DNA of 64,000 nt from Vairimorpha necatrix. Taxonomy: Eukaryota. The translations under genes were made by a program, and so were the position numbers. Numbering within the stretch: position 1 is the first letter of the stretch; each line of letters begins with the position of its first letter. The DNA lies in assembly GCA_036630325.1 (NCBI GenBank), contig CP142728.1, forward strand, positions 1,364,001 through 1,428,000. The letters run 5' to 3'. Under the pieces are notes generated by a model. That model saw only the letters and a list, made by a program, of their open reading frames with translations, searched no databases and was not told the DNA's origin. Positions 19,512 through 64,000 of the stretch are shown here, piece by piece.

Positions 19512-20181
19512 GGTACATGACCGTTTGGAACCCGCTTTGGAAAAATGAACCCGCTTTGGAAAAATCAAAAAACTGAAAAATAAAAAAAATTATAAAAAAG
19601 GGACTTGATGATTTATTTTAAATAATGACAGAAGACAATTTATCCGGTGAATTTTGTGAATTTGGAAAGCCCAGTGGAACTGTAAAAGGTACTCTTGTTC
19701 TTCTTTGTTTATATCTAGAACAATTATCTTTTATAGAAATGAGCCCAAACCAACTAAATTATATGGCGGACGGTGACTCAGAATCGCTAGAGGTTACAGC
19801 ATTTATGGAGTGATTCTTAGTACTGTGCTCCATCCCTTTGCTTAGCTAATGTGGCATCATATGCTACCCATTGATTAGAGATTATAATAGAAAGAGGTTA
19901 TACATTTTCTTGTATTACCTCAAGGAAAAAGCAGTATTTCTACTAGTTACAGAAACGAGCAAGGCGCACGCGCTCAGCATCAAATGTTTCCAAAATAAAC
20001 CTTTTATTATATTCCATGTATAAATCAATTCATCATTAAAAACCTCATCTGCCTAACAAACATTGTTTTTGCCAATTTTGCCATTTTTTTAAAAAGGGGA
20101 GTTTCTTTAAAATTTCAAACCGGGTTCATTTCCCCAATGCGGGGTTATTTTCCTAAAGCGGGTTCCAAACGGTCATGTACC
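19512..20181 (-). mobile_element. Non-autonomous (internally deleted) Merlin element with TIRs and 8-bp TSD
   Basis: TIRs GGTACATGACCGTTTGGAACCCGCTTT / AAAGCGGGTTCCAAACGGTCATGTACC, with sub-terminal repeats of AACCCGCTTTGGAAAAAT. TSD AATAGGAA at 19504-19511 and 20182-20189. Minus-strand remnant VIQENV*PLSIIISNQWVAY...NHS. Confidence 0.92.
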
Positions 20182-29175: not shown

Positions 29176-31418
29176 TTATTTAAAGGCATCTAAAGCTTTA
29201 GTAAATGATTCGTGCATTTTAATTCCTTCGGTCTTGTTCAATATTTCTAGAATTATTGTTTCATCTAACATCATTTTAACATTTTGAAAGATTTTTCTTA
29301 ATTTTACCTTTTCTACGTGACATATTTTCATTTCACTTTCGAATAAATTATTAAAAGCTTTAGGTAATTCAATCGAGGCCTGTTTTCTTAATCTAACTTC
29401 TATATTATTTCTCAAAATTTGTATAAAATCATCTTCTATTTCATTTTTATAATCATTTATTAATTCTTCTTGTGTTTCATTTTTTTTATAAATTCATTAA
29501 ATATATTTTCGATGATTATTTTTCCTTTTTTTATTTGTTCATTTTCATAATATGTTCTAATATCTTCGTCGAAAATATCTTTAAGCTCTTCTTCCAAGGG
29601 ATTTGATTTGATTATGTTTAAATCATAATCTAATGATGAGTTTTTTAACATTTCTCTTATTTTTTTTGTTTCTTGCTCTTTTAACTTTCTCTTTTTTTCA
29701 TATTCTTCATCTTCATCTGTGTTTTTTTGTAGATTATTTTTTATAATATTGGCCTTTTCCTCTATCTCATTTCCATCAAGTTGAAAGTTTTCACAAATTT
29801 CATTTCTTATGAAATCTTCCTTGGTATCTTTGTATACAAAACGCGAACTAGCCAATCCTGTAAATAATGATGTCATTTTGCATACATTTTTCAAAACTTC
29901 GTTTTTATATTTTATAATATTTTGGATATGGTAATTTTCTACTTCCTTTATGATTTTTACGATATTAATACATCTGCTATTTCTATCTGAACGAGATATC
30001 TTTTCATTATTTTTCTCTTGTATATATTCATTTATATCTATTAATATTTTCCAAATATATTCGTTGTTTATGTTTTTTTTATTAATATATTCTTCTGCTT
30101 CCAAAAGTAGGAAAATTTTTATTAAATAACAATCTGAAAATTGAAGCCCTGACAATCTATATGATAATTTTTTTATAATTTTGTTTTTATTATCTTCTTC
30201 ATTGTTTGATCTAAATATTATCTCACCTGTTGTGTAATCCAATTCATCTTCCTCTACGATGTACATATGTTTAATAATAAAATTAAAAATTAATTTTAAT
30301 GCAGTTTCTTGTTTGTTCATTATTCTCATTATGAGAAATTCAACTTTGTTGTAATTTTTTAGTAAAGTATAAAAAAATTCAACACATTTATAATCTTTTG
30401 TATTTGCTATAAAATTAATCTTTTCCAATATTTTCTTAATTTCATCAAAAAAATTATTGTTTATAAATTTTTTTTCACCATCGTCCTTGTTTGATTCATT
30501 TTTTAAATATACAGAATTTTTTGTATATCCATTAAAAAAGCTTATAGAGTCTAAGTGTACCTCTATTTTGAATTTTTTAGGCATTATCTTTTCGATTTTG
30601 TTGCGTGAAATTTCTAAACATCTAATTTCGCCCCTTGCCTCAATATGATACAAATCATTGACGTTGAAAATCTCATATATTTTTTTTAGTATTTTTGCAT
30701 CGTGATGACCCATATTTCTTGTATTTACTTCAGCAAAAGTATTAAGTTCTTTATTGTCAAGATCGTTTATATCGAATTTAAACAAATAAAACATGTTATG
30801 TATTATAACGCATAATCTAAAATAGTAACTAATATCGTCTTCGTTTCTGCTGTAACTTATCATGAATTCTGGTTCACGAAACTTATATCCGTTTTTTGAA
30901 TTGAAATTTTCTATTTCCAATAATATTTTGTCAAAATAACCATCCGCTGCATAGATATTCTCATAATAAATTTCAATTCCTTTCTTTTTAACTCTTCTTT
31001 TAGCATTTATTTGATTTAATTTTTCTATAATTTTTTTCACGATACTATTACTTTCTCTATATTCATATTGTGAGTATGACAATAAAATGTAGTCAATGCT
31101 TAAAGTAGATGTAATCTTCTTTATGAATTTTTCTATTTCTTCAATAATATTATAAGTGGATTTGTTAGCATAATCAATAATTATATACCCAAATTCATTA
31201 GAAATAGTTTCATTCAAAATATTATTCACAAGCAAACAACATAATTTCTTATTATTTTCATTACAAGTAATTTGTATTTGCGTATATTTCTTATTTAGGT
31301 TGAAAACTGTATACTTCCTATTCTCAATTTGCTTTAGTATAATTCCATTTATTTTGTTATAAATATTTATATTTGATTTTACAAACCAAATTACAACAAA
31401 AAATTTGATTATATTCAT
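29176..31418 (-). CDS. Uncharacterised, probably secreted protein (652 aa as assembled; 747 aa if one frameshift is corrected)
   Basis: Long ORF with CCCCTA immediately before the ATG, a short hydrophobic N-terminus and a charged, helical-looking C-terminus. One extra A in the 8-nt run at 29480-29487 joins it in frame to ORF 29176-29415. Confidence 0.85.
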
Positions 31419-31771
31419 TAGGGGAAAAATAAAATTAGTATTTTAATTGTTTTAAAAATTAAAAAAAATTTCTAATTTTAAAGAAATCGTAAAATTAACT
31501 GAAAATAAATTATCAAGGTTTTGAACTTAACATTTCAAAAATCTCATTTGGGTTGTACAAATCTTAATGGCTGTCAATAATTTTTTAAATTTTTTTGCAG
31601 AAATTTTAAAAAGAACAATATAGAAAGTAACTCGGCCAAAGTGAACTTTAGACAATATCTATTATAGACTTATAAGAAAAATTGAAAGGGTTTTCATTTG
31701 ATTCTAGAATCCGTGTAAAAATTATTATCATATTTTTTTTGTACGTGTTGTACTCAAAGCGGGGGTTCAAG

Positions 31772-32724
31772 GGCAGTCTGGTAGCCAAAAATCCCTTAAA
31801 AGGAATTTTTAAAAAATCACCCCAAAAATGAAAAGTCCAAGGGAAAAATTTAAAAATCATTTGAATAATTTTATCAAACAAATCCCCTTCAAAATTTCTT
31901 CTAAGCATAAATCTTACCAAAGAACTCTTTATTAATCTTTTCGTTCTATTCCTTATGGAAGTTTCACTTTTAACAGCGCTCCAATTACCTTCGATAGTAT
32001 TAGTATGGCATGAATTATTATTATTAACAAATTCTTTTGCATGATTAACCGTCTTATGTTGTTGAAAAATTGAACACAACCTAGAATATGAAGAGAAGCA
32101 ATCACTATGTATGATAGATTCTGGGTGAACATATTTAATTAAAAGTTCTTCAAGTGTAGTTGCTCTTCTATTATCAACAGAGGCAAACACAATTTTCCTT
32201 TGAGGTGTTCTTTCTACCATTCCGAAAATCCAAACAGCTTCTACCCTATGGCCTCTATGTTATTTTACTTTACCAAACTTACTTTCATCTATTTCCACAA
32301 CAATCCCAGGTCCTCCTATTATACCTGTTTCAACGTAAACAGAATTTTCGATGGAATTTACTGTTAAAGAAATGATTTTTCTTACACTTTTAATGCTAAT
32401 TCCAAGAAATTCCGCAATAGATTTATACTTTACATTAACAGACCATAATTTAATAATTAATAACATAGTATTAATTCGAAGCTTGTTATTGTAGAATGGA
32501 GTGTTTTTTAAAAAGACCATTTACTTCTACATTTAGACCAAGTACATCGAAAAATAAAATTTTCATTATATTTTTTACTTATAGAACCACATTTTATACA
32601 TGATTTGCTTGTTTTTTCAATATATTTTAAAAAAAATTTCAAAAAGTTTTTCCTCTTGACTTTTCATTTTTGGGGTGATTTTTTTAAAAATTCCTTTTAA
32701 GGGATTTTTGGCCACCAGACTGCC
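31772..32724 (-). mobile_element. Merlin transposon with ~66-bp TIRs and a frameshifted transposase
   Basis: TIRs GGCAGTCTGGTAGCCAAAAATCCCTTAAAAGGAATT... and ...GGGATTTTTGGCCACCAGACTGCC. Transposase from ATG 32667 contains CIKC, VEIDESKFGK, IHSDCFSSY, TVNH and HTNTIEGNWS. No matching TSD. Confidence 0.92.
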
Positions 32725-32739
32725 ATAGCTCCCATTCAT

Positions 32740-41098: not shown

Positions 41099-41413
41099 TG
41101 TTATATAAAATAAAAAATAGGTTAAACTATTAAATACTCTAAGAAAGTAGAAGCGTACATCAAGATGATTAACAGAGAAGGCAAACATAATCATTCCAAC
41201 AGACTACCGAAGAGATGTACATGTTCCGATTTGAAAAGGACTACGAGACGAGAAGCTGCCCACAAAACAGAAGATGCTAACGCGGAACCTATTCAGAATA
41301 TACTAGAAATATAAAACACTTTTAGCATATCCCGTTATAATTCATTTTTATTAGAAAAATAATAGTAATTATGTTGTATATATTTGTAAAATTTGTTTAT
41401 ATATATTATAACA
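41099..41413 (+). repeat. Dispersed LTR-like repeat family X, copy 1
   Basis: TGTTATA...TATAACA ends. The core GTAGAAGCGTACATC..GATGAT...GCTAACGCGGAACCTA...AAATATAA...AGCATA is shared with the copies at 54440 and 60778. Confidence 0.65.
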
Positions 41414-41474
41414 ATGGTATTTATTATGTTATTTTCTGAAATAAACTATATTTTTTCCATATTAAATATGAATT

Positions 41475-43427
41475 TGTGGTATTATTTACCACATTATTAT
41501 ATTTTCCCTCCAAATGAATTTTCTAGAATTTATTTTTACCCTTACCAAAATATGTCAAGAAGAACAGAGGAGTCTAGAAATCAGCAGTATCAATCACTGC
41601 ATCCCCAGAAGAGGAAGATAAAGCCCAAGGAGTCAGATTTAATTTTACAACTTTAATTGAAAGAAAACTTTAATACCCGGGAGAAGCATTATCGAATGCT
41701 ATCTGAGGAGCAGCCAACTCCCGGGTAATACCTCAATGAGCTCATTAGTATTAGAAAAAAGTAATAATACTGAGAAACAAAATGATGATGAAGCATATAT
41801 CACAGTTGATAAAACCATAGAAGTAACTACAATAGTGGTTAAAGATAAAATTGAAAAATGTAAAACGAGACTGCACCATAAAGCATCTCGAGTTGTTTGA
41901 AGAGTTAGGAACGGCCAATAAATGGACTGATGAGCAGATGGGACTCATCTAACATTCTTTGATTGAAGATTTTAAGGTGAAAGATAAGCTAAATAAGAAA
42001 AGCTTCAAAAAACAAAAAAAAATAACTACTAGAATTTAGATATCCAAAAAATGATGTAGCTTTATTATTAACAGAGATAAAAACTGTAAAACAGGTAAAT
42101 TATAGAAGTATAGCAGATTACTATGAGAAAATAAAATTGATGATTAGAATATACGGACTATCTATGAACCTATCGAAAAAGGAATCTGATTTTAGCTTGA
42201 AACAGATTTTTGAGAGAGGATTAGGCAGATCAACTGCCATTGAAGTTTTAAAATCAGGAATGAAAAACAAGGGATGGACGAGCTTATAAAATATTCACAA
42301 GATCTGGAAGAAATGATTATTTTAAAGGCGAAACTGGAAGGGACACGAATATCTCAATTTATATCTAAGAAAGAGAATTATGAAAGACCTGAAGAAACAG
42401 GAAGATACTTTATAAGTGATAAGTGGTGCTCTATACATAGAGCAAGATCACATGATACACGAGATTGTCGCTACGAAAACCAAAAGCCAACGATAGAGAA
42501 ATAAAAAAAGAAGGAAAATCGTTAATGATAAAAAAAATTCCTAACTATGAATTGGATGAAAAACATAAAAAAACTGACTGCCTATTAATTCAGAAACAAA
42601 AAGAAAAAAAATCATCAATAAACAGAAATGTATAAATGAAAGAATAAATAATATAGATAATTGTATTAAAAGGAATTTGAATAAAAAATAGCAATCTATC
42701 AGCTAAAGTCTTAACTAATATAGTTGACTTTGTGAAAAGGACAGGGAATACGATACCATCAGATGATATATATTCTAGAAATATTAAAATAAATAACAAA
42801 GAAAGAAGCAAGCCTCCTGATAAAATTAAAGATAACCATCAACAGGTAAAAGATTTAGCAACATCTAAATATGATAGTTATTAGAATAAAAATAAATTAA
42901 ATCTTGGAACTTTCATAAATCATTGCCTCAAAAATTTAATGCAGCAGATGCCATTTAGCATATGTAGATATGAAGTAAACGGTGAATCTGAGAAGCTCAA
43001 ATATGATAAGTTGAACTCATACCCTGATTTGAGGTTTAAAATATCCAACCCAGCTATTACTAGGAAATGGCGGAAAGAACTATTTGATGATTTCGAAGGA
43101 ATCCGTATTCTAATTTGCTGACCCTTTAGAGGGGATTGTATGTGGTATTATTTACCACATTATTATATTTCCTCCAAATGAATTTTCTAGAATTTATTTT
43201 TCTATAAATATTTTTTTTTTATTTTAATCCCCCTTCCAAAATATGTCAAGAAGAACAGAGGAGTCTTGAATTCTCCAGTATCAATCAATGCAACCCCTGT
43301 AGAGGGAAGATAAAGCCCAAGGAGGCAGATTTAATAATACAACTTTAATTATAATAAAAATCTTATACCCGGGAGAAGCATTATAGAATGCTATTTGAGG
43401 AACGGCCAACTCCCAAGTAATACCTCA
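41475..43427 (+). mobile_element. Non-autonomous gag-only LTR retrotransposon
   Basis: LTRs at 41475-41735 and 43141-43427 (TGTGGTATTA...TAATACCTCA). 5-bp TSD GAATT at 41470-41474 and 43428-43432. PPT-like AGAGGGGA shortly before the 3' LTR. The 1.4-kb interior has a decayed gag with WCSIHRARSHDTRDC and no RT motif. Confidence 0.92.
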
Positions 43428-48071: not shown

Positions 48072-50061
48072 ATAAAATCAATAATTACATCGAACTATAT
48101 TTATCCAGAGGTAGCTCCTCTGGACTACGTCAATAATGAAAATTTAAAGTCTCAAAGAAACATAAGACATACGACAAAAATAAAATATAAACATCTATAT
48201 AGGAACACAACAACGAACATTCCATTCTGTTATTCTATATTAAAACAGTATTTTGAAATTATTGGTTATAATCTGTAAAAATATTATAAAATAAACTACA
48301 AAAAATTATTCAAATGAAAATAATTATAAATAATTAAGAAATAAATCTAATAATGGTCAGAAAACAATATAAATACATTTCGAATAATAAGATAATCAAT
48401 ATTTATACAAATTGTAAATTTATACACAAAACTAAGCTGGAAATGAATTTCGTATTTCTTAATATGAATTTTTCTAGTAAATATCATATATTCCACGTAT
48501 TTATTATTTATACTAAAATTATGATAAAAATAAAATCAAAATAAAACAGAATTAGTATTTTTACGAAAAAAAACTACACTAACCGAAGAATTTAAAAATA
48601 TAAATTAATAAGAGCTAATAAGGGTTAATAAAAAGTATAAACAAAACCCAATGCAACTAATTATTAGATAAAAATATATATCTGAGGATAATATAATGTA
48701 AGAGCGTATAAATTAAAAAAACAAATCTTATCTTTAATAATGACAGAAAATAGTTTAATGCATAAACCCAATTACATATTAAACATAGATGCGGTTGACG
48801 ATTAATATTAATTATTAAATAATATTTAATTTAAATATTAATTGATAAAAAAAATATAATAATAAATTGGTAAATTAAATTATAAAATTTTAACAAAAAA
48901 ATTTTTATGAATTTTTTTTGGAATAAACATTTTGATTTTCGTAGAATGAAATCAATCTAATGATTTAATTAAAAATTGGAATTTTTCAATAATCCATGAA
49001 AGTGTTACATCATAAAAAATACATTTTAATATACACATTATGTAAAACATTTTCATAGATAATGATAGGTTACTTTTAAACCATCCGCAATTTTTTACGC
49101 AATAATTTTGAATATACAACATATCGGAATCGCAAAAAATTTATCAATATTAACTGGTTATCAAATATATAAAACTGGTTCTCCTCATAATTGAAATTAT
49201 ATGAAGATCAATCAAGAAGTAAATCTAACGGTTATAACAGAAAATATAAAAACATATCTAGGAGATTATGATCACATAATCAAATATATTTCTTATAGAA
49301 TGTATTTTTTAATTATCCAATATTTTCACTCCCTCTTATTTTTAAAATATTATATTTTCTACCATAAAAAATTGAAGTCCAAAGAGAACATAAAAAATAG
49401 ACACCATATCATTTGTAATAATAAAAGAAATCCTGGACAGTTCGGCAAATACATAGATACATAGAATTGTACATTAGAAGAAGACGCATCCCTATGCAGC
49501 AGCCAAGTAAATATAAATATTCGATAAAAATTTAAAAAAACAATTTTTTTTCTAAAATTTCTTATGTTATAAAAATAAATTAAATCATATTAATTTATAC
49601 ATAAATCTTAATTACTTTTATTGATCTATTTTTATATCACGTAATTTTATAGTGAAATATTCAACTGTAATTAGTTATTCGTATTGTATTTTTAAACAAA
49701 CACTGGAATCTAGTCCTTAATGTTTCCAAATTATCACGTCATTTTACTTTCTTGGAAAAATGATTCAATTTTATTATTCAAAGTATTTATCATAAGCTTT
49801 CCTAAAGATTATGAGCTCCTATGTCTGTATATATGCGTTAGTAAGCTTTCGAGATTTAAGTTATTTGTATAATATCCCTAAAATATTTTTTTTCTATTAT
49901 AATACGAATATTTCCAGTAAGAAATATGTCAAAACACAAGAATGACATTTTTTACAATAATATATTACAAAATAAAGACATGATTCAATACTTTTACAAT
50001 ATATTTTTACATAAATTTATTCGCAGAATTACACCAAAAATACTTTGTGTTTTAATTATAA

Positions 50062-53000
50062 TGTTAAAGTTGAACCTCCTATTAAATAAATGTATAACAT
50101 GGCAAACACAAAAGATGAAAGGGTAAAAGTGAGACCTGTGTTTAAGAGAAGAGAAAATTACTAAAAGAAGCCCAGAGAGTTGAAGCAATCATCAGAATGC
50201 AGAAAGATGTAAAAGATGTGACAACAAAGCAGTCGATAAAACAAGTAAGTTCCTGAACTTCAGGATTTTATTATTGATAAAAATTTGATCAGTATGATTA
50301 ATTGGAATGATATTATTGATGAAATTGATAAATTAGTTGTTGAAAAGAAAGAGAATAAGAACAAGGAAAAATTAAGGAGTAGAGAACTCGAAGATATGGT
50401 AGAGGTTATGAAAGAAAAATTAAAAAGAAGATTAAAGAATAACTGACTAGGACTGTAGCAGTACCGGGAAGAAACTTTCAATATCAAAGACGAGAAGAAA
50501 ACCATTGTTTTATATGTGGAAGAATTATACATATAGCTAGAGATTGTATGGAGCGTAAAGGAAGACAGGAAGAGAATAATGAAAATAAAAGGGAAAAATA
50601 TTTTGGCATTCGTGATAATAGAAAATTGAAAATATTAAAAGGAAATGATTTTAAATTGAGACTACCAGTGGAGGTAGAAAGAAGAACTCAAGAAACAGTT
50701 TTTATGTAAAAAAAACGAAACAAGATAAAAGGGGTAAATATTAATAAATTAGAAGAAATGAGAGGAAAATTTCCAGAAGTATTAGGAAATGACGAAGAGT
50801 AAATAAAATACTTAACAGGGGGAAAATATTCTATCAAAACAAAACAAGGAGTGAAAGTAGTTATAAAAAGACAAAATATTTCTTATAATTCGAGAAAAGT
50901 TAGAAAAGTATATTAATTTAAAAGAAAGTAGAGGTATTTTCAGAATGACAAAGAGCGAATGGAGAAGCCCAATAAGTACTATAGAAAAACTAAATGGTGA
51001 AGTACAATTTAGAAGCAATTTGATGGCTTTAAACGAACTGGTGCAAAAAGATCCGTATGAATTGTCATTGATTAGAGACATTATTAGGGCAACATAAGGT
51101 TCTATTGTATTTATGGTTATAGAACTAAAGGAAGGATTCTATCATATAGAAATTAAGAAAACTCAAAAGCATAAGAAAGCTTTTGAGATAAATGTTAGAG
51201 TTTACAAAAAGAATAGCATGGTAATGGGATTTAAAAATCTTCCTATTTTATGTAAAAAGTGATGAACGGAGTTTTAGATAAGTTTAGAGGCAAGAGTGTT
51301 GAGGTGTACATGGATGATATTATTATTATTCATGCAAGAGATAGTAATATACACGAAAATTTATTAAAACAAGTAATTCGATTATTTAACGAATGTGGAT
51401 AAAAAAAACTTAAAAAAAATACAATATAAAGGAGAAGTAAAACTACTTGGAGTAACAATTAACGGAGAAGACATTACACCAAATGAAATTTAAAAGCAAG
51501 AGACATTAGAATACAGAAGGCCTAACAAGATGAAAGAGCTTAAGAGATTTGAGGACGTGCAGGCTGGTTAAGAGATTTTATTCCCCATTATGCTTATGTT
51601 TCAGCGCTTCTTACAGAAGCACTAAAAAAAGATGTTAAATGGGAATGGTCCGAACATATGGAAAGAGCTCTTATGGATATCAAAGAGGGTTTAAAGGATG
51701 TGAAAAAATTAAAAATGGTAGATAGTAAAAAAATGTGTAGAGTAAGGACAGATGCATACGATACGGGAACTTGAGCTATACTATTGCAAGAAGACAAAGA
51801 AGGAAGGTGGAATCAGATACAATGGGCATCAAAAATGTTAACAGCAACAGAAAAAAGGTATATGATTAATGAAAAAGTGATGTTGACAGTGTTATTTGGA
51901 ATAAAGAAATTCGAATCCGATTTGAGAGAAGCAAATTTCATTAAATGACAAATCATAAAGAACTGGCTGAGATTAGAAACAAACCGTTTCGCAAAACTAA
52001 CAAAAATAATAGATGGATAAAAAACATACAAGAGTTCGATTTTACTATTGAATATGTAAAAGGAGAATGGATGACGGATGTAGATGCTCTTAGTAGACAA
52101 TTTAAAAATAACAAAGTTATAAAAAAAGCAGCGAAAGATAGAAACGGACTTAAAAACAGATGAAAGGGAGAGAAATAAAGCGCATGGTTAAAAGAGAAGG
52201 TAAAAACTATTTGAAGTTCTCAACAGGAGAAATTAAAGAACTACTACACAAAGAACTAAGAGAGACAGAAATTCCAGAGTTCATGAGGATTTAAATCATC
52301 GAGGAGTGAAAAACTTATTATAAGGAAAAACAAAGACTGTACTGGCAAGGTATTGGACCAGATAACCACAACGCTAAAAAATTGTAAAGTATGTAGCATT
52401 AATAACATAAAAACGACTGGAGATCCAAATTTGTAACAACATTTAAGAAATTAGAAAAAGTAGCTTTAGACGTAATGGATATTGAGGAAAAAGAAAAATA
52501 CGTGCTATTAGGGACTGACTCCTTTACGAGAAGAGTATGGGGCGCAAAGATGGAAAATAAGGGAAATGATGTTATTACGAAAATTTTAGGATAATGGATA
52601 AATGAAGATGGATGCCTAGATGAATATTTCGGATAACGGTAAGGAATTTGTCAGTCAGAAGTTTGTAACTTGGTGTAAAGAAAATGGAATAATGCAATGG
52701 AAAGTATATTTAGAAGCTCATAGGGTTAATTGGAGAATAGAACGATGTATTTGAACAATAAGGGAACCGATGATCAAAAAAAAAGAAGGAAACCCAGAGG
52801 AAAAACTAGAACAAGCTGCAAGAACCTATAATAACACTCTACACACAGCGATTAAATGTACACAAATGGAAGCATGGAAAGAACAAGGAAAAGAAGTCTT
52901 AATTGAAAACAATAAAAAGAATGTGTATGCAAGTAAGTTTAAACAAAAGCATAGAGAAAAATTTGAAGTAGATCAGGCTGTGAGAATCGCAAGATAAAAA

Positions 53001-53233
53001 ACTTGGGTAAATAGATGAAAAGTACAAAAGGAAGATTTACAAGTGTCGGTAAAATATTCGGAAAGTATAGAATGATTCTTATTTTGTAAGGACTGATAGC
53101 GGAAGATACATTAAGAAAGACATTATGACCTAGAATTTTATAAAAATGATAAATTAGAAGCTTGTAACCTGAGACTACCCGTTTGAAGGAGAAATGTTAG
53201 GGTTGAACTTTCCTATTAAATAAATGTATAACA
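50062..53233 (+). mobile_element. Full-length degenerate Ty3/gypsy retrotransposon with 38/39-bp LTRs
   Basis: LTRs TGTTAAAGTTGAACCTCCTATTAAATAAATGTATAACA (50062-50099) and TGTTAGGGTTGAACTTTCCTATTAAATAAATGTATAACA (53195-53233). TSD TATAA. TGG follows the 5' LTR. PPT GAAGGAGAAA. Gag knuckle CFICGRIIHIARDC, RT YMDD (~51307), RNase H RTDA and TNHK, integrase HEDLNHRG/CKVC, DNGKEF and RIER. Confidence 0.95.
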
Positions 53234-53396
53234 TATAATCATTAATCTGAAAAAAAAATAATTGAATAAAAAAAATAGTTAGATAAATTTTTATTAAAAA
53301 TTTTCTTTTTTTATTTATTTTAGTTACATATTGATTTAACTGATAAATTTTTTAAACAAAAGATTGAGGAAGTTTTGAGGGCTAAAAGCTTACGTG

Positions 53397-53446
53397 TTAG
53401 TTAGGTTAGGTAGGTAGGTAGGGTAGGTAGTAGGTTAGGTAGGTGT
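53397..53446 (+). repeat. Degenerate TTAGG/TAGG telomere-like tract
   Basis: TTAGTTAGGTTAGGTAGGTAGGTAGGGTAGGTAGTAGGTTAGGTAGGTG. Confidence 0.7.
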
Positions 53447-54439
53447 ATCTGTTATATTAAAAAATGTAAAGTTTGAAAAAGAGAAAAACTAAACTTTAAT
53501 TTATTTTTGAATTCTAGCCATAAAATTAGAATATGTTGCACCGAAAGCATTATATACCTTTTCTATATTCTTTAAATAGACTATATATCGACTCTTTAAC
53601 ATTAATCAAAAATTTATCTAGAGAAGCCTAATAAAGAATAGAAAGAAACAAATAGTAAGTAAAATCATACAGTAAAATATAATATGACAAGTTTTTCGCA
53701 AATAAATTTTTAATTTTATAATTACGCACTTTTATTCGAACATAAAATGTTATTTGAAAACATTTAAAAAAGAAAAATAAATTAGTAATTTTTTATCCAA
53801 CACATGACAAGAATAATATTTGTTTTGTTTTTCGTCCCATTGAGTCATATACTAAGATCTAAAAGATCTATCAATTTCATAAAAAATTTGTAATATATCA
53901 AAATAAATTTTAAAAGAAAACTTATCGCAAATTGTTTAAAAATTTAGCATTTAGAACTTCATACTATAGGCATAATTTCTCAAAGTCAAAAAATGATGTT
54001 TATACAAAAAGGTTTACAATTAATAATTATTAGAAAATTATCTAGAATTAAAAGCAATTTTTTTAGATTAAAGTTTTCTTCTTAGAAAATGAGTTTAGTT
54101 TTTTATGTAAAAGCTATTTAAATATAAAAATTAATATTTTTTTATTAAAAAATTTCAGTCATACGAAAATAGTAGAATATACAAATTTTAATAATTTAAT
54201 AATAGTATATCAATAAATATACTAAAGAATATAATCATTACGAAAAAAAGAACCTTCTAATATGTTTAATTTGATATCATTAGTCACAATTCAATATTTT
54301 ATAAATGATCAAGCTTATTATCATAAATAAACTAAAATGAAAAATATAGAAAAAGATTAAATATATGGTTTAATAACAGAAATAATTCACTACTTAATCA
54401 CTTGAAACGGTATAGTGACCAAGTTCCACAAATCATATA

Positions 54440-54672
54440 CAACAAGACTTGGAATCCCTAAGAAGGTAGAAGCGTACATCCAGATGATAACGCTAAAGAA
54501 GACGCTAGAAAGCATTCTCTGGACTACCAAATGAGAGGTGACGAAGCCGTTGTGGAAAAGACTTTGGAGCCACAAAGCTATTTACAAACAGGAGACGCTA
54601 ACGCGGAACCTACCCCTGTTAAACTATAAATATAAACTACAATAAGCATACCCTAATTATATTCATTTATTT
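54440..54672 (+). repeat. Dispersed LTR-like repeat family X, copy 2
   Basis: Shares the core with the 41099 and 60778 copies, including CAGGAGACGCTAACGCGGAACCTA and AACTATAAATATAA. Confidence 0.7.
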
Positions 54673-57600
54673 AAAATAAGATGAATATTTATCAAAATAA
54701 TTAGATTAATATAATGAAATTATGAATCAAACGAATTACAAAATATAATTTAATATTATAATAAACGGTAAATATATAAAACAAGACACGGAATAAATTT
54801 AATTAACGTAAAAAATTATGCTTATGATAAAGTATTATTAATAAAGATGAATTTTAGAAAATCAGATTTTGTTATGTATATAACGTTAGAACTATAAAAT
54901 AAAACAGATTCCTAATGAAGGATATTTTAGATCTACCAATAAATTATAATCGATTTGACAAACAAAGCTGTTCTAGTACATCTATCAAATAAATTCTTTA
55001 AACCAAATAATATATTTTATGTAAAATTTACATAATATTTTTAAAATTCAGAGTTAATTAAAAATAAACAACCAAGATACAACGATGATAATACAAACAC
55101 AAATTGATAGAATTTAAAATAACTTATTCTAGTACCACAATTAATCTTTTGATATTATTGACAAGTCTAAATATATTCAAATATTTCGGTTATACATAAA
55201 TCAGATAGAATACTTTTTTTCTATTAAATAACAAATCCCAAATATTAATATATTTAGATCTGCTATAATCCATCTTATCATCAAATAAAACGTAAATATT
55301 AAATAGAATCCTAAAAATATAAATCTTAGGCCCTAAATTATGTTATTTTTTGATTCTACTAATATTTTATCAATATCACATTAAGACTCAACTATTTCGC
55401 AATTAGAAGCAAGTTATCTATATATTATCGCCTTGTTTGTGAATTTAATATTTTTAAAAAATGAATTCGTTACTAAAATATGATCACAAAGATCTTATTT
55501 ATATTTATTAAATTTATTTGATTCAAAATAGAAAAATTATAAAAATTCAATATAATGGTATAAATTATATATAAAGCTGAAGAATATATAATATTCAAAA
55601 ACATAACTTTTTCCAAAAATTTTATTACAACACAAAACAAAAAAAAAACTAGTTACTTACAAAAAGAAATTTATTGATTTATTTAAGCTATCACGAAAAA
55701 TATTAGAAATGTCAACTAAAAGATTTAATAAGTATTATTAGATATATATATATATTGTTATTTTTTAGGTTAATGTGATCATATTAACAAACTATAATTA
55801 AAGTTATATAAAAATTCAAAATTCTACATTTATATTCCTCTTATAAAACCTAATCATTTTTACTTATTATCATGATTGACACACCTCAGGCTTTCCAAAA
55901 TCCTATCAATTATGAATAAGTATTCACGGCTTTACGGTTCTCAGATATAGGTCCATAAAATGATATATCTAAAATATTACATCTTAATAATTTAAAATCT
56001 AAATTAATTATGTTTGCTAAAACTTGTTATTATGATTTTTTTACAATAAAAATTAGTTCAAATTTTTAAAAAGAAGTTTTAATACTTTAATAAGACATAA
56101 GATTTTTGAATTTAATTGTTAACGAAATAGTGTAATGGACTAAATCAATAATGAACATTGTGTAATAAACATAAACCTTACATAAAGAAATTTATAATCA
56201 ATAAATATATTAAGGATAGATAAATATAATATGCTCATGTAATGATAAAATAATATAGACTCCATAATAGTGCTTTAAATATAACTTTAGTATGTGATAA
56301 GCATACAATTGATAATTTATTTTTTTTCCTTAAGATGAAGTTAAAAACAAATATAAAAACCTACGTAGTTAGAATTTGGAGAATTAGTTTTTTGATGATA
56401 TAGGTAAATGACTGCTATAGATAAACATTTTAGATTTAAGATTCTTATTTAATAATTTGATTGATCCAACAAAATTTATAAATAAAAGCAAAATTAATAT
56501 CATATGCTACATTTTATAATTTATTTTTGTTATCCATATAAATTTTTAATAGCAAAAGATATACTACAACTATACCTTTAAATACACCTTACATTCTAGT
56601 TCATGTTACTGTGTATATACCAAGAATCAAAAAGTAGAAGATCTCATTATTTAACTTTATTATATTGAAATTCCGAAAGTTTTCTAATTAAATCATTTAA
56701 AAGACAAATAACAATATAGATACAAGTTATGGGATTTAAAAAAAATAGATTTAATAAAAAAATGTGTTCTAGGAAATAACTAACAATAAATTTATAAAAA
56801 ATGTAATAATAAATTATCCTTCTCATAAATCTAAATTACAAAATAAAATTTTTTTGATTCAGATATAGCTTACATTTATATATTAATAGATAAAATATTT
56901 TACTAATGTTATATATGCTTGTCTTTGCGATCGTTTACTAGAAGTTTAAACAAATTTATAAATTTATCCTATAAAGAGTAATTTCTTTTCATATCGCATT
57001 ACCAAACTAATTCGTTTATAAGTTTTATTATCAAAGAATAGTATTGTAGAACATTTTAAAATTCTTGTATAACACTGGTCTGTATAGATGACACAGTTTA
57101 AAATTTAGCTTGGGTCTATTGCATATATTCTCAAATATTACATTATTTAGATTTTAAATTACGTTTCCTAAATAAATAGTTGTAAACTAGTCGACAGAAC
57201 CTTTGATCATAGATTATATTGCATTGTTTTCATAATATCATAATTTATTAAATACAACGTATGTTTGAATAATATTTATATTAGTTTAATCGAAGCAAGA
57301 ATTTAACTTGTCAAACAATTATGAGTATATTTTATAACTAAGTGATATGATAATATAATAAAAAAAAAGGGATGGAATTTAATTTTGTATATTAAGTCAA
57401 TTTTAGTGTTAACTGAAAAAAACTTTATTGAGAATCGTTTTTCTTGTAGGTTAGGTAAGTATGTTAGGTATTTTTTATTTAGAAAAAGACCAATTCTTAA
57501 CTTAAGAAACAATTTAAGTCCGCAAAACAAAGGGATGAAAGTATTTATTATTTATTTATATTTTTGTATATTTAGATCATTAATTATGGTTTGTTAGCCC

Positions 57601-58101
57601 TTTAAGTTTTTAGATGATCGATGTATGAAGAAGTTGTGCCAAAGAATTAACCATAATTTTTAATAGTGTAAATATAGAAATTCAACCTTTTAAATTGTAC
57701 TTATAAAACAATAATATACTATATACACTATGAAGCCAAATTATTAAAAAAGCTTTTACATAACGTATTTTAACAACAAAGAGAACATACTGTATCGAAA
57801 TATTGGTTAATATATTCAAATCATTGAGGTACTAAGAAAAACAGAACTTATACTCTTTTTAAAAAATCAATTGAAATATATATATGTATATATAAGAAGG
57901 ATAATGAACTTGAAAGAAGAAGAAAATTAACTTTACTTCATAACAAAAAAAATTAACATGTATAGTATATGTATGTAAAGTTAAGAAGTATTGGTTTTCT
58001 AGATGATATTTTTAAGAGAAAAATAATTTCAAATAATTTTTATAGATAAATCACTATAACTTTATAAACATATAAGAAGGAAATAGCAATGTAGTAAAAT
58101 T

Positions 58102-59415
58102 TAGAACATCTTAGACTACATATAAATCTATATTATTGTTATATAAGCAACACTTGAGTATCTTTATTTGATTTTAAAGCATTTAAAAGATTTGTTATTT
58201 TTTCTTCTCCTTCTTGTATATATATATAAATAGACAAATCTTGAAAAATTTGAATAAATTAAGAACTTCTGAAAATGCTTATAAATTCATATTATTGTTA
58301 TATAAGTGACACCTGGGTACTTTAATTGTTTTTAAAGCATTTATGAAATTTGCCATTTTCCATCTCCTTCTTGTATATATGTATATAAGAAGACAAATCT
58401 TGAAAAATATGAAAAAATTAAGAACTTCTGAAAATGCTTATAAATTCATATTATTGTTATATAAGTGACACCTGGGTACTTTAATTGTTTTTAAAGCATT
58501 TATGAAATTTGCCATTTTTCATCTCCTTCTTGTATATATGTATATAAGAAGACAAATCTTGAAAAATATGAAAAAATTAAGAACTTCTGAAAATGCTTAT
58601 AAATTCATATTATTGTTATATAAGTGACACCTGGGTACTTTAAATGTTTTTAAAGCATTTATGAAATTTGCCATTTTTCATCTCCTTCTTGTATATATGT
58701 ATATAAGAAGACAAATCTTGAAAAATATGAAAAAATTAAGAACATCTGGACTACATATAGATTCATATTATTGTTTTACAAGTACTTTTTGTATATCTTT
58801 TTTTTGTTTTTAAAGCATTTATGAAATTTGCCATTTTCCCATCTCCTTCTTGTATATATATATAAGAAGACAAATCTAGAAAAATATTAAAAATATGAAA
58901 AAATTAAGAACATCTAAGACTACATATAAATTCATATTATTGTTTTACAAGTACTTTTTGTATATCTTTTTTTTGTTTTTAAAGCATTTATGAAATTTGC
59001 CATTTTTCCATCTCCTTCTTGTATATATATATAAGAAGACAAATCTAGAAAAATATTAAAAATATGAAAAAATTAAGAACATCTAAGACTACATATAAAT
59101 TCAAATTATTGTTTTACAAGTACTTTTTAACATTCTTTATTTGTTTTTTTAGCATTTATGAAATTTGCCATTTTTCATCTCCTTCTTGTATATATGTATA
59201 TAAGAAGACAAATCTTGAAAAATATGAAAAAATTAAGAACTTCTGAAAATGCTTATAAATTCATATTATTGTTATATAAGTGACACCTGGGTACTTTAAT
59301 TGTTTTTAAAGCATTTATGAAATTTGCCATTTTCCATCTCCTTCTAGTTTACATATATATGAAGACAAATCTTGAAAAATATGAAAAAATTAAGAACAGC
59401 TGAAAATGCATATAA
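58102..59415. repeat. Satellite array, ~159-bp unit, about 8 copies, two subtypes
   Basis: Unit starts (AAGAAC) at ~58102, 58261, 58420, 58579, 58738, 58906, 59075, 59235 and 59392. Confidence 0.95.
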
Positions 59416-60777: not shown

Positions 60778-60995
60778 TGTTATGTCTAAATAACATCCAG
60801 ATGATCACGCTAAAAAGCATTTCTCTGGACTAATGAAGGAGAGAATACGAAGCTGATGTGGAAAAACTATGAAGATAAGAAGCAACCTACAAGCAGGAGA
60901 CGCTAACGCGAACCTATCCTTGTTAAACTATAAATATAAGTTACAATAAGCATATCCTAATTAGATTCATTTATTTTTATGTCGAAATATAACTA
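60778..60995 (+). repeat. Dispersed LTR-like repeat family X, copy 3
   Basis: ACATCCAGATGAT...CTCTGGACTA...CAGGAGACGCTAACGCG.ACCTA...TGTTAAACTATAAATATAA...ATTCATTTATTT. Confidence 0.7.
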
Positions 60996-63055
60996 TATTT
61001 CAACGATATCTTATTGTACCATAACATAGAATTTCGCGACCCAATATAGGATATAAAATTAGTTATAACATCTTGATCTTAAGATATCTCATGATTTTAC
61101 GAGATCAAAATTACTTTTAATAAAGGATAGTTTTTGAAAAACTTACTTTCAATATATGATAATATTGGCAAACCTGTTCAGGAGATGAGTAGACCACCTG
61201 AAATTAAAACGAAATATATATAAATATATCTGATTGTTATGTTAGTATCTTTCTATTAGAGAAAATATTTTACATCTGATCGTATAATATTTACTCGTTA
61301 AATCAGTAGTAAATCAAAAAAAAGTAAAAAGGATTCAACATTTTGAACTGATATTTTTTGTATATATTTTATATAGAAACCTCATTAATAACAATTTCTA
61401 TTGTATATATAAAATACTTTTTTGTTTAATATTTTGTTTTCGATATTTCTAAAATTTTATCCTTATACATCTGTTTTAAATTAATAGCAAATTGAGAATT
61501 AGGGATATTTATGCATACTTCTTAATTAAAAATATTCATTGTTAATCGTATAGTGTTATAACACTTAATATGATATCGTTTTAAATTTTATCATTTATTT
61601 ATATCAGTATATGGAAGGGACACATAAAATATTAAGCATTTTAAAAGTTTTCATAAATTATCTTTTTAAATTCTTATAATCATTAATTAAATACTAGAAT
61701 AATCATCAAAATATTCTTGTTTTTACATATCACACAATTCAATGTTATGTATCAAATTCATCAGACTGATGTTCTATGAATAATATTAGTAAGTAGGATT
61801 ATTAAAATACTCGAAATGTCTAAAATTGCACCTTTATTCTACGTAAAACTGTTTCTAAATAGTCTAATATTTATAATTTGATCTTAATTCTAATATCCCT
61901 TTTAATAATTGAATTATTTATTCAGATAATGCTAAACTTATATCTATAGAAGTTTTCGCATACATTCATCACAATGATTATGTAATAATCATACTTATGT
62001 TTGATTGGCAATAATTAGGTATAAATGCGATTATTAAAATCATTATTTTCTACGGACTAAAAATATATGACCGGAGAAACCTTATGTTTATCAATAGATT
62101 ATATGACTAAATTTAGTAAAGCACATGTAGCGGAAGAGCTTTTTTATAATTATAGTAAAAAGCTGCGATTACAATTCTTGTGACAGCCCGTGTTTTTTCA
62201 CTGTTAATGTAATTTTTTTTTACTTTATGCTCATGATCTTATTTATCAGCTAATGATTTTTATACAATTTAATACTTCGGAAATTTGAGTATACATCTGT
62301 ATTCCAACTTTTCAACTTCTCGCGACACGTGGGATGCGCAAGCGCTATAAGGTCTTGTCCATTGAAGTTGGTATAACTAACGGTACTCAAATTTCTGAAG
62401 TATATAATTCGTATAATAATCATTTGTTGATAGAAGATCATGAGCATAAACTATAGAGATTATTACACTATCAGACAAAAAATTGACTGTCTTGTGATGT
62501 GATATTGTATAATACTCTATTTATAGTAGTATTAATTTCACAAAACTTCATTGTCATTCCAAACTTGTCTTATCTCTTTATTGCACCAATCCAATCTTTG
62601 ATTTCTCATTGCCCATAAACAAAAAAATTTTATTTAATATTTTAGGAGGGAAATTTAAAATAAACAAAAATTTAAAAGAGCGTAGATTTTGAATTTAAAG
62701 GATTTAATAGCAAAAATAAAACAAATTTTTGTTATAAATTAATTAAAAATATACAATCAAAAACTAAACAAATATGTTAATTACTCTTTATTCAATGATC
62801 TTTATTTGAAATTTATTATTAATTTTTCTTTGTCTATAGAGTAACAACTCAATTAAAAAGATGACCAGATAATATTTTTTGAAATTTAATACGGCCTTTA
62901 AATTTTTTAAATTCTCTGGCATTTTTGAAGAAATTCAAAATTTAATTAAATTTTTTCTAAAAATCAATCGTAATGTCAAACTAAAATATTTTTTCCATAA
63001 TAATAGTTACAGTTGTAAAATTTTAAGAGTTTAGGAATTCATTATTTCGGCTGAA

Positions 63056-63880
63056 GATGCCCAAACACCCCCCCCTCAGAGGGTGTTCACTTTATTTTTT
63101 CGAACCCCAAAATTGAAGTGCAAAATAAAGGAGGAGCAAAGAAGAGACAAAAATTACTAAGTACTTATTACATTAAAAACAAAAAATAAACATACGTTTA
63201 TGTACAGAATTATATTTTAATTTAAGTTTGTATATTTATAACAATTGATAAGCAGTTTTTACCCTTCTGATTTATTAGAATTGGGGACCAAAATGCCTTC
63301 CTCTGAGGGTGTTCACTTTATTATTTTAAACCCCAAAAACGAAGTGCAAAATAAAGGAGGAGCAATCATTAGCATTCAAATTACTTGCATCTTTAAACAG
63401 TAAAAATACCAAATAATTATATATTTGTATACGAAATTTAATTTAAAAAAAGAATATAATCATAAAACTACAAAATTCTAAATAACTTGGCATCTTTCAA
63501 ATTAATTTTTTTGATTTAACAATCTGTATAGATCGTTGAACATTTATTTAAATTTTCTTATATAAATAATATTTATAATTTTAATTACTGGTTTATTATA
63601 AAAGTAGATTTTTGAAGAAAATCTACTTTTATAATAAACCAGTAATTAAAAAAAAATTTAGAAAAATAAGAAGGGCAAAAAAGATACAACACTTTAAATG
63701 ATTATTAGAACTACATTTAAAATTAATTTTTGTATACAAGCATATATTTATTTGTTATTTTTAATGTAATAAGTACTTAGTAATTTTTGTCTCTTCTTTG
63801 CTCCTCCTTTATTTTGCACTTCGTTTTGGGGGTTCAAAAAAATAAAGTGAACACCCTCTGAGGGGGGGGTGTTTCGGATC
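63056..63880. mobile_element. Non-autonomous foldback/MITE-type element with ~170-bp TIRs
   Basis: The left arm AAACACCCCCCCCTCAGAGGGTGTTCACTTTA...GGAGGAGCAAAGAAGAGACAAAAATTACTAAGTACTTATTACATTAAAAA is mirrored at ~63710-63880. A third partial arm lies at ~63283-63365 and there is an internal perfect palindrome. No TSD seen. Confidence 0.85.
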
Positions 63881-64000
63881 CTTCCTCCATTATTTCTAAA
63901 CTATATTATTATTGTGTACATATATATTTATATTTTAAAATCTTATTTGATTCTGCAGGAATCTTTTCATTTCTTTAAGCATACATCCAGTCTAATGTGA

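Follow-up and report, generated by a model that had tools for sequence, protein, structure and literature searches.

The Window and Its Decayed Element

The DNA analysed here, which we call the window, is a stretch of 64,000 nucleotides from Vairimorpha necatrix (contig CP142728.1 of assembly GCA_036630325.1, positions 1,364,001 to 1,428,000 of the forward strand); coordinates are positions within it. At 50062-53233 it carries a decayed complete LTR element of 3172 bp, which has LTRs of 38 and 39 bp and a 5-bp target-site duplication (TSD). The following features were assigned to the element.

50057..50061, plus strand: 5' TSD of 5 bp; the identical 5-mer lies at both flanks of the element
50062..50099, plus strand: 5' LTR, 38 bp, TG...CA; direct repeat of 53195-53233
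50100..50112, plus strand: primer-binding site, which is also the first gag codons; it agrees with the 3' end of the host tRNA-Arg(ACG) at 12 of 13 bases
50099..50505, plus strand: mini-Gag helical region, with stops and frameshifts; found by tblastn with the N-termini of P0001 and P0002, E ~1e-5
50506..50547, plus strand: CCHC zinc knuckle, seen in the sequence; Pfam zf-CCHC E 0.0026, below the curated cut-off
50548..50769, plus strand: knuckle-to-RT interval of 222 nt, holding a charged linker and the first RT helix, without a protease
50770..52097, plus strand: RT and RNase H, both broken; partial Pfam matches to RVT_1 and RT_RNaseH_2, and tblastn with the intact relative L031
51307..51318, plus strand: YMDD motif of RT
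51748..51759, plus strand: TDA motif of RNase H
52083..52097, plus strand: DALSR motif
52154..53159, plus strand: integrase (HHCC, DDE core and C-terminal domain), broken; tblastn with L031 at 42-51% identity, and motif positions
53181..53194, plus strand: polypurine tract (PPT), degraded in the window copy; a G-run in intact relatives
53195..53233, plus strand: 3' LTR, 39 bp
53234..53238, plus strand: 3' TSD

The gag start codon (ATG, 50099-50101) takes its first base from the last A of the LTR, and Gag runs from there to the end of the knuckle at 50547, a broken frame of about 150 codons, as originally predicted. The central claim of the original prediction, that no recognisable aspartic protease lies between gag and RT at 50500..50830, was borne out, as D[TSC]G is absent from all six frames of the 222-nt interval. 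From the CCHC knuckle to the RT start at 'FPEVL' we measured 74 codons, all in one frame but interrupted by a stop, close to the ~70 that had been estimated, and about 10 of these 74 already belong to the first RT helix. A protease profile of 104 positions, derived from 17 elements of this genome that carry a protease, reached a maximum of 2.4 bits on this interval. The longest stop-free stretch in the element is only 88 codons, so this copy alone could not exclude decay; it is a dead, inert witness, and the interest sits in the clade.

A DNA search with the window element returned at least 44 matches, with 40 of 204 candidates scored, and the best 30 of the 44 were fetched. In 28 of these 30 the flanks and the TSD were those of the window copy, and 20 of the fetched copies lay within 4 kb of a contig end with the 3' LTR toward that end; identity to the window copy was 85-98% (L001-L029). 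The 28 copies go back to a single insertion that was duplicated as part of a subtelomeric repeat (48500-54700), and because they have flanks and TSD in common we rejected them as independent evidence. For the same reason, the consensus of genomic copies that had been proposed as a check would be pseudo-replicated, with 28 of the 30 fetched loci sharing one insertion site. Two independent insertions were found, L017 with its own TSD and a 224-nt interval, and L030 with a 202-nt interval. Overall, 28 of the 30 fetched family loci, L001-L028, had a knuckle-RT interval of 219-226 nt, with L030 at 202 nt and L029 at 1090 nt; D[TSC]G was present in this interval in none of the 30. A minus-strand DCG in another locus, L034, was set aside, as it sits in a 1252-nt interval lengthened by an insertion.

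Another member of the clade lies upstream in the window, and is referred to here as the first element.

5500..8690 (ends approximate), plus strand: first element, a decayed member of the protease-less clade; knuckle at 5877-5918, RT from ~6312
5923..6155, plus strand: nested LTR-like repeat of ~230 bp from another gypsy family, just after the first-element knuckle

The RT-RNase H of the first element was 59-66% identical to that of L031 over the main segments, and 34% identical to that of a protease-bearing sister, L087. The absence of D-T/S-G that had been noted at about 5920-6320 holds here too, with no D[TSC]G in the knuckle-RT interval. The distance from the knuckle end to the CxIxT motif of RT is 426 nt, seemingly longer than in the other copies because of the ~230-bp repeat nested at 5923-6155. 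Matches to this repeat were paired ~3.95 kb apart on contigs C2, C6, and C12, and the related copies L186 and L187 are contiguous across the site. The donor family of the repeat is a gypsy family of ~4.2 kb whose ORF seems to begin inside the repeat.

Intact Protease-Less Families in the Genome

Intact single-ORF copies of about 1000 aa, which the original prediction had proposed to look for, were found in five protease-less families of this genome, L031, L075, L162, L164, and L167, with ORFs of 1006-1042 aa. In L031 and L032, each 3.08 kb long, two identical LTRs of 38 bp flank a single ORF of 1006 codons, and the TSDs are of 5 bp; the L031 element has ~62-67% DNA identity to the window copy. 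The L075, L162, L164, and L167 families (1017-1042 aa, LTRs of 48-49 bp, 3.14-3.22 kb) follow the same plan, the LTRs of the L075 family having the ends TG...TA. Intact members as a whole are 3.07-3.22 kb long with LTRs of 38-49 bp, 5-bp TSDs, and a PPT. Their single ORF makes up ~98% of the element and encodes, in order, mini-Gag, CCHC knuckle, charged linker, RT, RNase H, and integrase; apart from the linker, the ORF is assigned to Gag, RT, RNase H (RH), or integrase (IN).

A protease domain with DTG or DSG in intact copies would have contradicted the prediction, and was sought with both Pfam and the profile; no protease was found. At E values up to 10, Pfam detected no protease in L031 or L075, while zf-CCHC, RT, RNase H, H2C2, and rve were found in L031 and the protease was detected in both controls, L085 and L087. 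The caution that decay might be masking the motif can thus be rejected, as intact single-ORF relatives share the layout.

In all five intact families the start codon takes its first base from the end of the LTR and its TG from the primer site. Over 13-14 bases the primer site matches the host tRNA-Arg(TCG) or tRNA-Pro(AGG) at the 3' end, with 13 of 13 matching in L031 (tRNA-Arg(TCG)) and in L075 (tRNA-Pro(AGG)), and it is translated, such that the tRNA-Arg families begin M-A-N-T and the tRNA-Pro families M-G-A-I-P. One further locus, L175, has LTRs like those of the Pro families together with an Arg primer site, which suggests a primer switch. Just upstream of the PPT (~53167-53194 in the window), a motif of ~15 bases is common to all intact families despite their different LTRs; by eye it could form a 5-bp hairpin, and it may be a cis signal.

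The N-terminal 241 aa of L031 had at least 34 genomic matches at 98-100% identity, of which at least 15 lie within open frames 1003-1011 aa long. Of 30 fetched loci, the LTR junction could be placed in 29 (L152 was left out of the flank count), and the 5' flanks of these 29 all differ. The L031 family has therefore spread recently to many sites. A single contig of run X1, which is possibly not independent of the assembly, covers the gag-RT junction of L031, an element for which no RNA holder was listed.

The Protease-Less Clade

The original suggestion that the family may be protease-less was supported, and it applies to a whole clade and not to one family. A protein search with L031 residues 1-330, with candidates limited to 553-1761 aa, returned at least 47 proteins. 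Among the best 28 of the 47, three are named for Nosema granulosis and many are proteins of ~1000 aa on contigs of ~3.1 kb, and a few may derive from this genome or a close one. These 28 database homologs are also without a protease. Since proteases are often missed by Pfam, according to PMC3248453, we relied on length and on a local profile. The distance from the knuckle to CxIxT was 57-105 aa in 25 of 25 scorable members, ~30 aa of which are RT, compared to 136 and 139 aa, protease included, in the sister families. The scorable members were 23 of the 28 homologs plus L031 and L075; P0017, P0020, P0021, P0027, and P0028 were dropped as being truncated or having no knuckle. None of the 25 had D[TS]G in the knuckle-CxIxT segment. 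The variable part of the linker is just 27-75 aa long, and its composition (44% charged, 25% hydrophobic) differs from that of protease domains (27% and 39%); the linkers are homologous, with knuckle-RT linkers ~16% identical between families.

A protease profile built without the sisters recovered all three sister families, with E values from 7e-11 to 4e-4, as well as five outside controls (7e-8 to 0.03), and in a six-frame search it found no protease among 280 protease-less clade targets. The locus L039 was left out of the protease profile. Weak profile scores in L011, L013, and L014 (E 0.002-0.004) were rejected, as they map to the integrase with the catalytic motif excluded. These data indicate that the missing protease is real and not an artefact of decay.

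In an RT-RH tree of 65 sequences (FastTree), the 30 clade sequences were monophyletic (support 0.97) and sister to L087-L089 (1.0), and the clade RT was nested among protease-bearing gypsy-type elements. IQ-TREE analysis of 32 of the 65 sequences gave UFBoot values of 99 for the clade and 100 for the sister grouping. For rooting, the midpoint or a distant gypsy element was used, with no copia/BEL outgroup, and P0033 and P0041 were dropped for their short core. The simplest reading of these sequences would be that the protease was lost once, on the clade stem.

The other domains are conserved. All 14 catalytic and zinc-binding sites of RT, RNase H, and integrase were invariant in 17 of 17 full-length members, and zf-CCHC was matched in 20 of the 31 alignment members. 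Between intact families, uncorrected pN was 0.15-0.23 for RT-RH, 0.19-0.30 for IN, and 0.29-0.40 for gag, with pS of 0.60-0.88; pN was below pS in gag, RT-RH, and IN for five of five family pairs, and the linker was the least constrained region. A metagenome scan gave three loci, L182, L183, and L184, the last of them broken. L182 (50-2578) and L183 carry the same protease-less ORF, the 5' end of which is fused in frame to part of the RNase H of a different element, as insertion into that element would produce.

The Mini-Gag

Gag upstream of the knuckle is 114-155 aa long in protease-less members and 165-256 aa in 15 protease-bearing elements. The clade Gag is about half the usual size, with room for about one capsid lobe. 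Structure models of two mini-Gags, one from L031, have four helices, the first three short to medium and the last long (pLDDT 75-78). Foldseek searches with the two models gave no matches at E<=0.001, and a VIA fold search with them found no capsid, the best matches (Z 6.3 and 7.0) being generic helical hairpins; a capsid lobe is still compatible with both results.

Profile comparisons were similarly faint. Aligned by hhalign to the second capsid lobe of protease-bearing families, the mini-Gag gave a weak in-register score of 18.8, compared to at most 11.3 in 30 column shuffles; the profile link to this lobe without the knuckle is weak, with a probability of 1-4%. Against the sister Gags the probability was 92%, mostly from the knuckle, and fell to 1.4% when the knuckle was removed. 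When the sister trio was used alone, the mini-Gag aligned to the first lobe instead. L050 was left out of the Gag profile. Language-model matches of the mini-Gag to Retrotrans_gag (0.84-0.86) are a lead only; Retrotrans_gag was not among the 25 families listed for the 31 members, and it was found in six of 12 controls.

Relationship to Known Elements

The clade has several hallmarks of Ty3/gypsy elements: LTRs with a TSD, a primer-binding site and PPT, the order RT-RNase H-integrase with intact residues in intact members, the RT phylogeny, and the CCHC knuckle. An aspartic protease between Gag and RT is not among them, and for this reason we file the clade as a Ty3/gypsy-derived lineage and not as a canonical member. 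It is of Ty3/gypsy descent, and Ty3/gypsy-like in its priming and integration. The closest relatives, the sisters L087, L088, and L089, resemble the clade in having a single ORF, with ~40% identity in RT-RH, but differ in having a protease, a Gag of 170-201 aa before the knuckle, and the junction motifs described below. In these sisters the protease runs almost straight into the CxIxT of RT, and the first RT helix, kept in the protease-less clade, is missing; judging from this layout, PR and RT may stay fused.

The best solved-structure match of the clade profile was Ty3 of Saccharomyces cerevisiae (7q5b, E 1.6e-100), with which the clade shares the RT-RH-IN order, a tRNA primer site, a PPT, and a 5-bp TSD. 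Ty3 itself encodes a protease and a two-lobed capsid, joins Gag and Pol by a frameshift, and has ~340-bp LTRs; the clade has none of these in that form. Small elements with short repeats and a missing canonical function are known in TRIM, LARD, and BARE-2, which possibly depend on helpers and which lack either Gag or most or all of their coding sequence. In contrast to these, the clade has RT, RNase H, integrase, and a mini-Gag that are intact and conserved, unlike the TRIM/LARD type, in which the internal region is non-coding or has no RT and integrase.

Two other lineages were considered as identities, and rejected as both encode a protease. Troyka elements are described in PMC12440569 as having a retropepsin, LTRs of 100-400 bp, a CX2CX8-10HX4C finger, and mostly a single Gag-Pol, so that LTR and finger differ as well; the Kuafuorterviruses are described in PMC11673190 as an unusual LTR lineage with an encoded protease. 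Microsporidian Ty3/gypsy groups, each with one polyprotein, were treated as ordinary elements in the main text of Parisot et al. 2014 (PMC4202319), in which the words 'protease' and 'proteinase' do not occur. Most other complete families given there are 3.6-4.3 kb long with LTRs of ~100-270 bp, and Table S1 records as complete the Anncaliia algerae element retro L, with a 50-bp LTR and an ORF at 32-3049 in 3127 bp. By eye, the first ~600 bases of retro L have the LTR-end start codon, the G-Q-E and A-S motifs, and the knuckle position seen in the clade. Going by text order only, its entry in Fig. S1 falls within the Group 1 part, and its likeness to the clade is one of size and of inspection by eye. 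PMC2474625 states that 'nearly all' Nbr elements have five domains, and an exception may be recorded there. Our literature search, which had subscription journals, Repbase, GyDB, and bioRxiv supplements outside its scope, found no paper describing protease-less gypsy elements in microsporidia.

How the Polyprotein May Work

We hypothesize that this is an old, monophyletic, microsporidian lineage derived from Ty3/gypsy elements, which would have lost its protease once and, with it, roughly half the capsid region and the greater part of the LTR. The polyprotein would be translated from the element's own RNA and would bind that RNA via the knuckle, and priming would occur on tRNA-Arg or tRNA-Pro. 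Reverse transcription and integration would then be carried out by one multimerising Gag-RT-RH-IN chain, in which the charged linker may serve as a flexible tether, with the mini-Gag binding RNA or oligomerising instead of forming a closed icosahedral capsid. A single ORF would yield Gag and Pol at 1:1, which, with so short a Gag, would be a poor fit to a normal capsid. The original prediction had offered trans-complementation, a host protease, or an unprocessed polyprotein as explanations; the evidence leans to the last of these. We give an even chance that the polyprotein works largely uncut.

The main evidence on cleavage comes from the junctions between domains. In the three sister families, [VI][NH]E[VI] is present at both the Gag/PR and the RH/IN junctions. 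This motif resembles retropepsin cut sites. Its looser form, [VIL][NH]x[VIL], was found at RH/IN in three of three sister families, 10 of 18 protease-bearing elements, and one of 26 scorable protease-less members (P0006 and P0022, which were misaligned, and L184 were dropped from the count), where it should be borne in mind that the motif was picked post hoc from sister sequences, that eight of the 18 protease-bearing elements are without it, and that the rows share descent. Protease-less members have a conserved, apparently structured block of ~60 aa at this junction. The motif was not enriched in the knuckle-RT linker either (6 of 29, shuffled mean 3.9, p 0.17). Its loss at RH/IN together with the lack of linker enrichment favours an uncut chain, at least for RT-IN. 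Some observations count against this. The L031 subclade retains V-N-K/R-L just before RT, and N-[YF]-x follows the knuckle in eight of 25 linkers compared to 1.5 in shuffles (also post hoc); either could be a retained cut site. Ty1 and Ty3 elements with a mutated protease are not known to transpose. Further, intact protease-bearing gypsy families, the sister group included, are plentiful in the same genome, such that a helper protease is at hand.

In the main alternative, which we consider possible but less likely, the elements are partial parasites. Their polyprotein and RNA would be co-packaged in the particles of protease-bearing gypsy elements and cut in trans by the helper protease, with the mini-Gag docking on the helper capsid and RT and integrase acting in cis. 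Besides the helpers at hand, the weak in-register alignment of the mini-Gag with the second capsid lobe and the candidate cut motifs in some linkers count in its favour. This is countered by the 25 of 26 scorable members that are missing the sister motif at RH/IN, and by its lack of enrichment in the linker. All of the enzymes are also under purifying selection across families that are ~55-60% identical in RT-RH, and the full-length members examined have not drifted toward a non-coding parasite.

Improbable, in our estimation, is cleavage by a host (microsporidian) protease or the proteasome at exposed basic linkers, freeing Gag, RT, and IN. The charge and the low identity of the linkers are those of reachable, exposed tethers, but a conserved recognition site was not seen and RH/IN carries its structured block. 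A hidden protease that is very divergent, of another class, or elsewhere in the element is more improbable still: the variable linker is too short a stretch to be promising, being modelled in L031 as one helix and low-confidence coil, the rest of an ORF that nearly fills the element is assigned, and the six-frame profile search was negative with its controls working. Decay, a private deletion in the window copy, or an assembly error can be dismissed despite the heavily decayed state of that copy, as the layout recurs in the independent insertion L017, in five intact families, and in homologs from other organisms, and the X1 contig, subject to the reservation above, crosses the junction in L031.

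The uncut reading can be taken further, and we do so tentatively, granting it somewhat less than an even chance. The clade may be an autonomous lineage without proteolytic maturation or a closed capsid, in which one chain of ~1000 aa forms a cis-acting ribonucleoprotein, is tRNA-primed, makes two strand transfers across LTRs of 38-49 bp, and then integrates. If this is true, the clade would be a minimal ortervirus-type replicon, and protease-driven particle maturation would be dispensable for LTR-type replication.

To our knowledge, protease processing inside the Gag particle is treated as required for LTR retrotransposons and retroviruses. An old loss of the protease, with the other enzymes under selection and a family still bursting (at least 34 near-identical copies), makes this assumption directly testable: either an uncut Gag-RT-IN replicates, or helper dependence spares only the protease and half of the capsid. 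At ~3.1 kb, these elements would also indicate how small an element capable of LTR-type replication can be. LTR finders have a default minimum LTR length near 100 bp, and with such a minimum they would miss the elements of this clade.

Other Features of the Window

Several other repeats were observed in the window. Remnants of IS1595/Merlin-type transposases (Pfam E ~1e-12) and elements bounded by inverted repeats occur at 1653-4856, 19512-20181, 31648-32733, and 63053-63884, and a tandem array of about eight units of 157-169 bp lies at 58096-59415. On the minus strand, 29460-31442 is an open frame of 660 codons with a weak match to DUF6960, below the cut-off. Another gypsy-like remnant at 41265-43427 has repeats ~1.69 kb apart and a knuckle of the form C-x2-H-x4-H-x4-C, and related repeats are found at 54586-54679 and 60910-60976.
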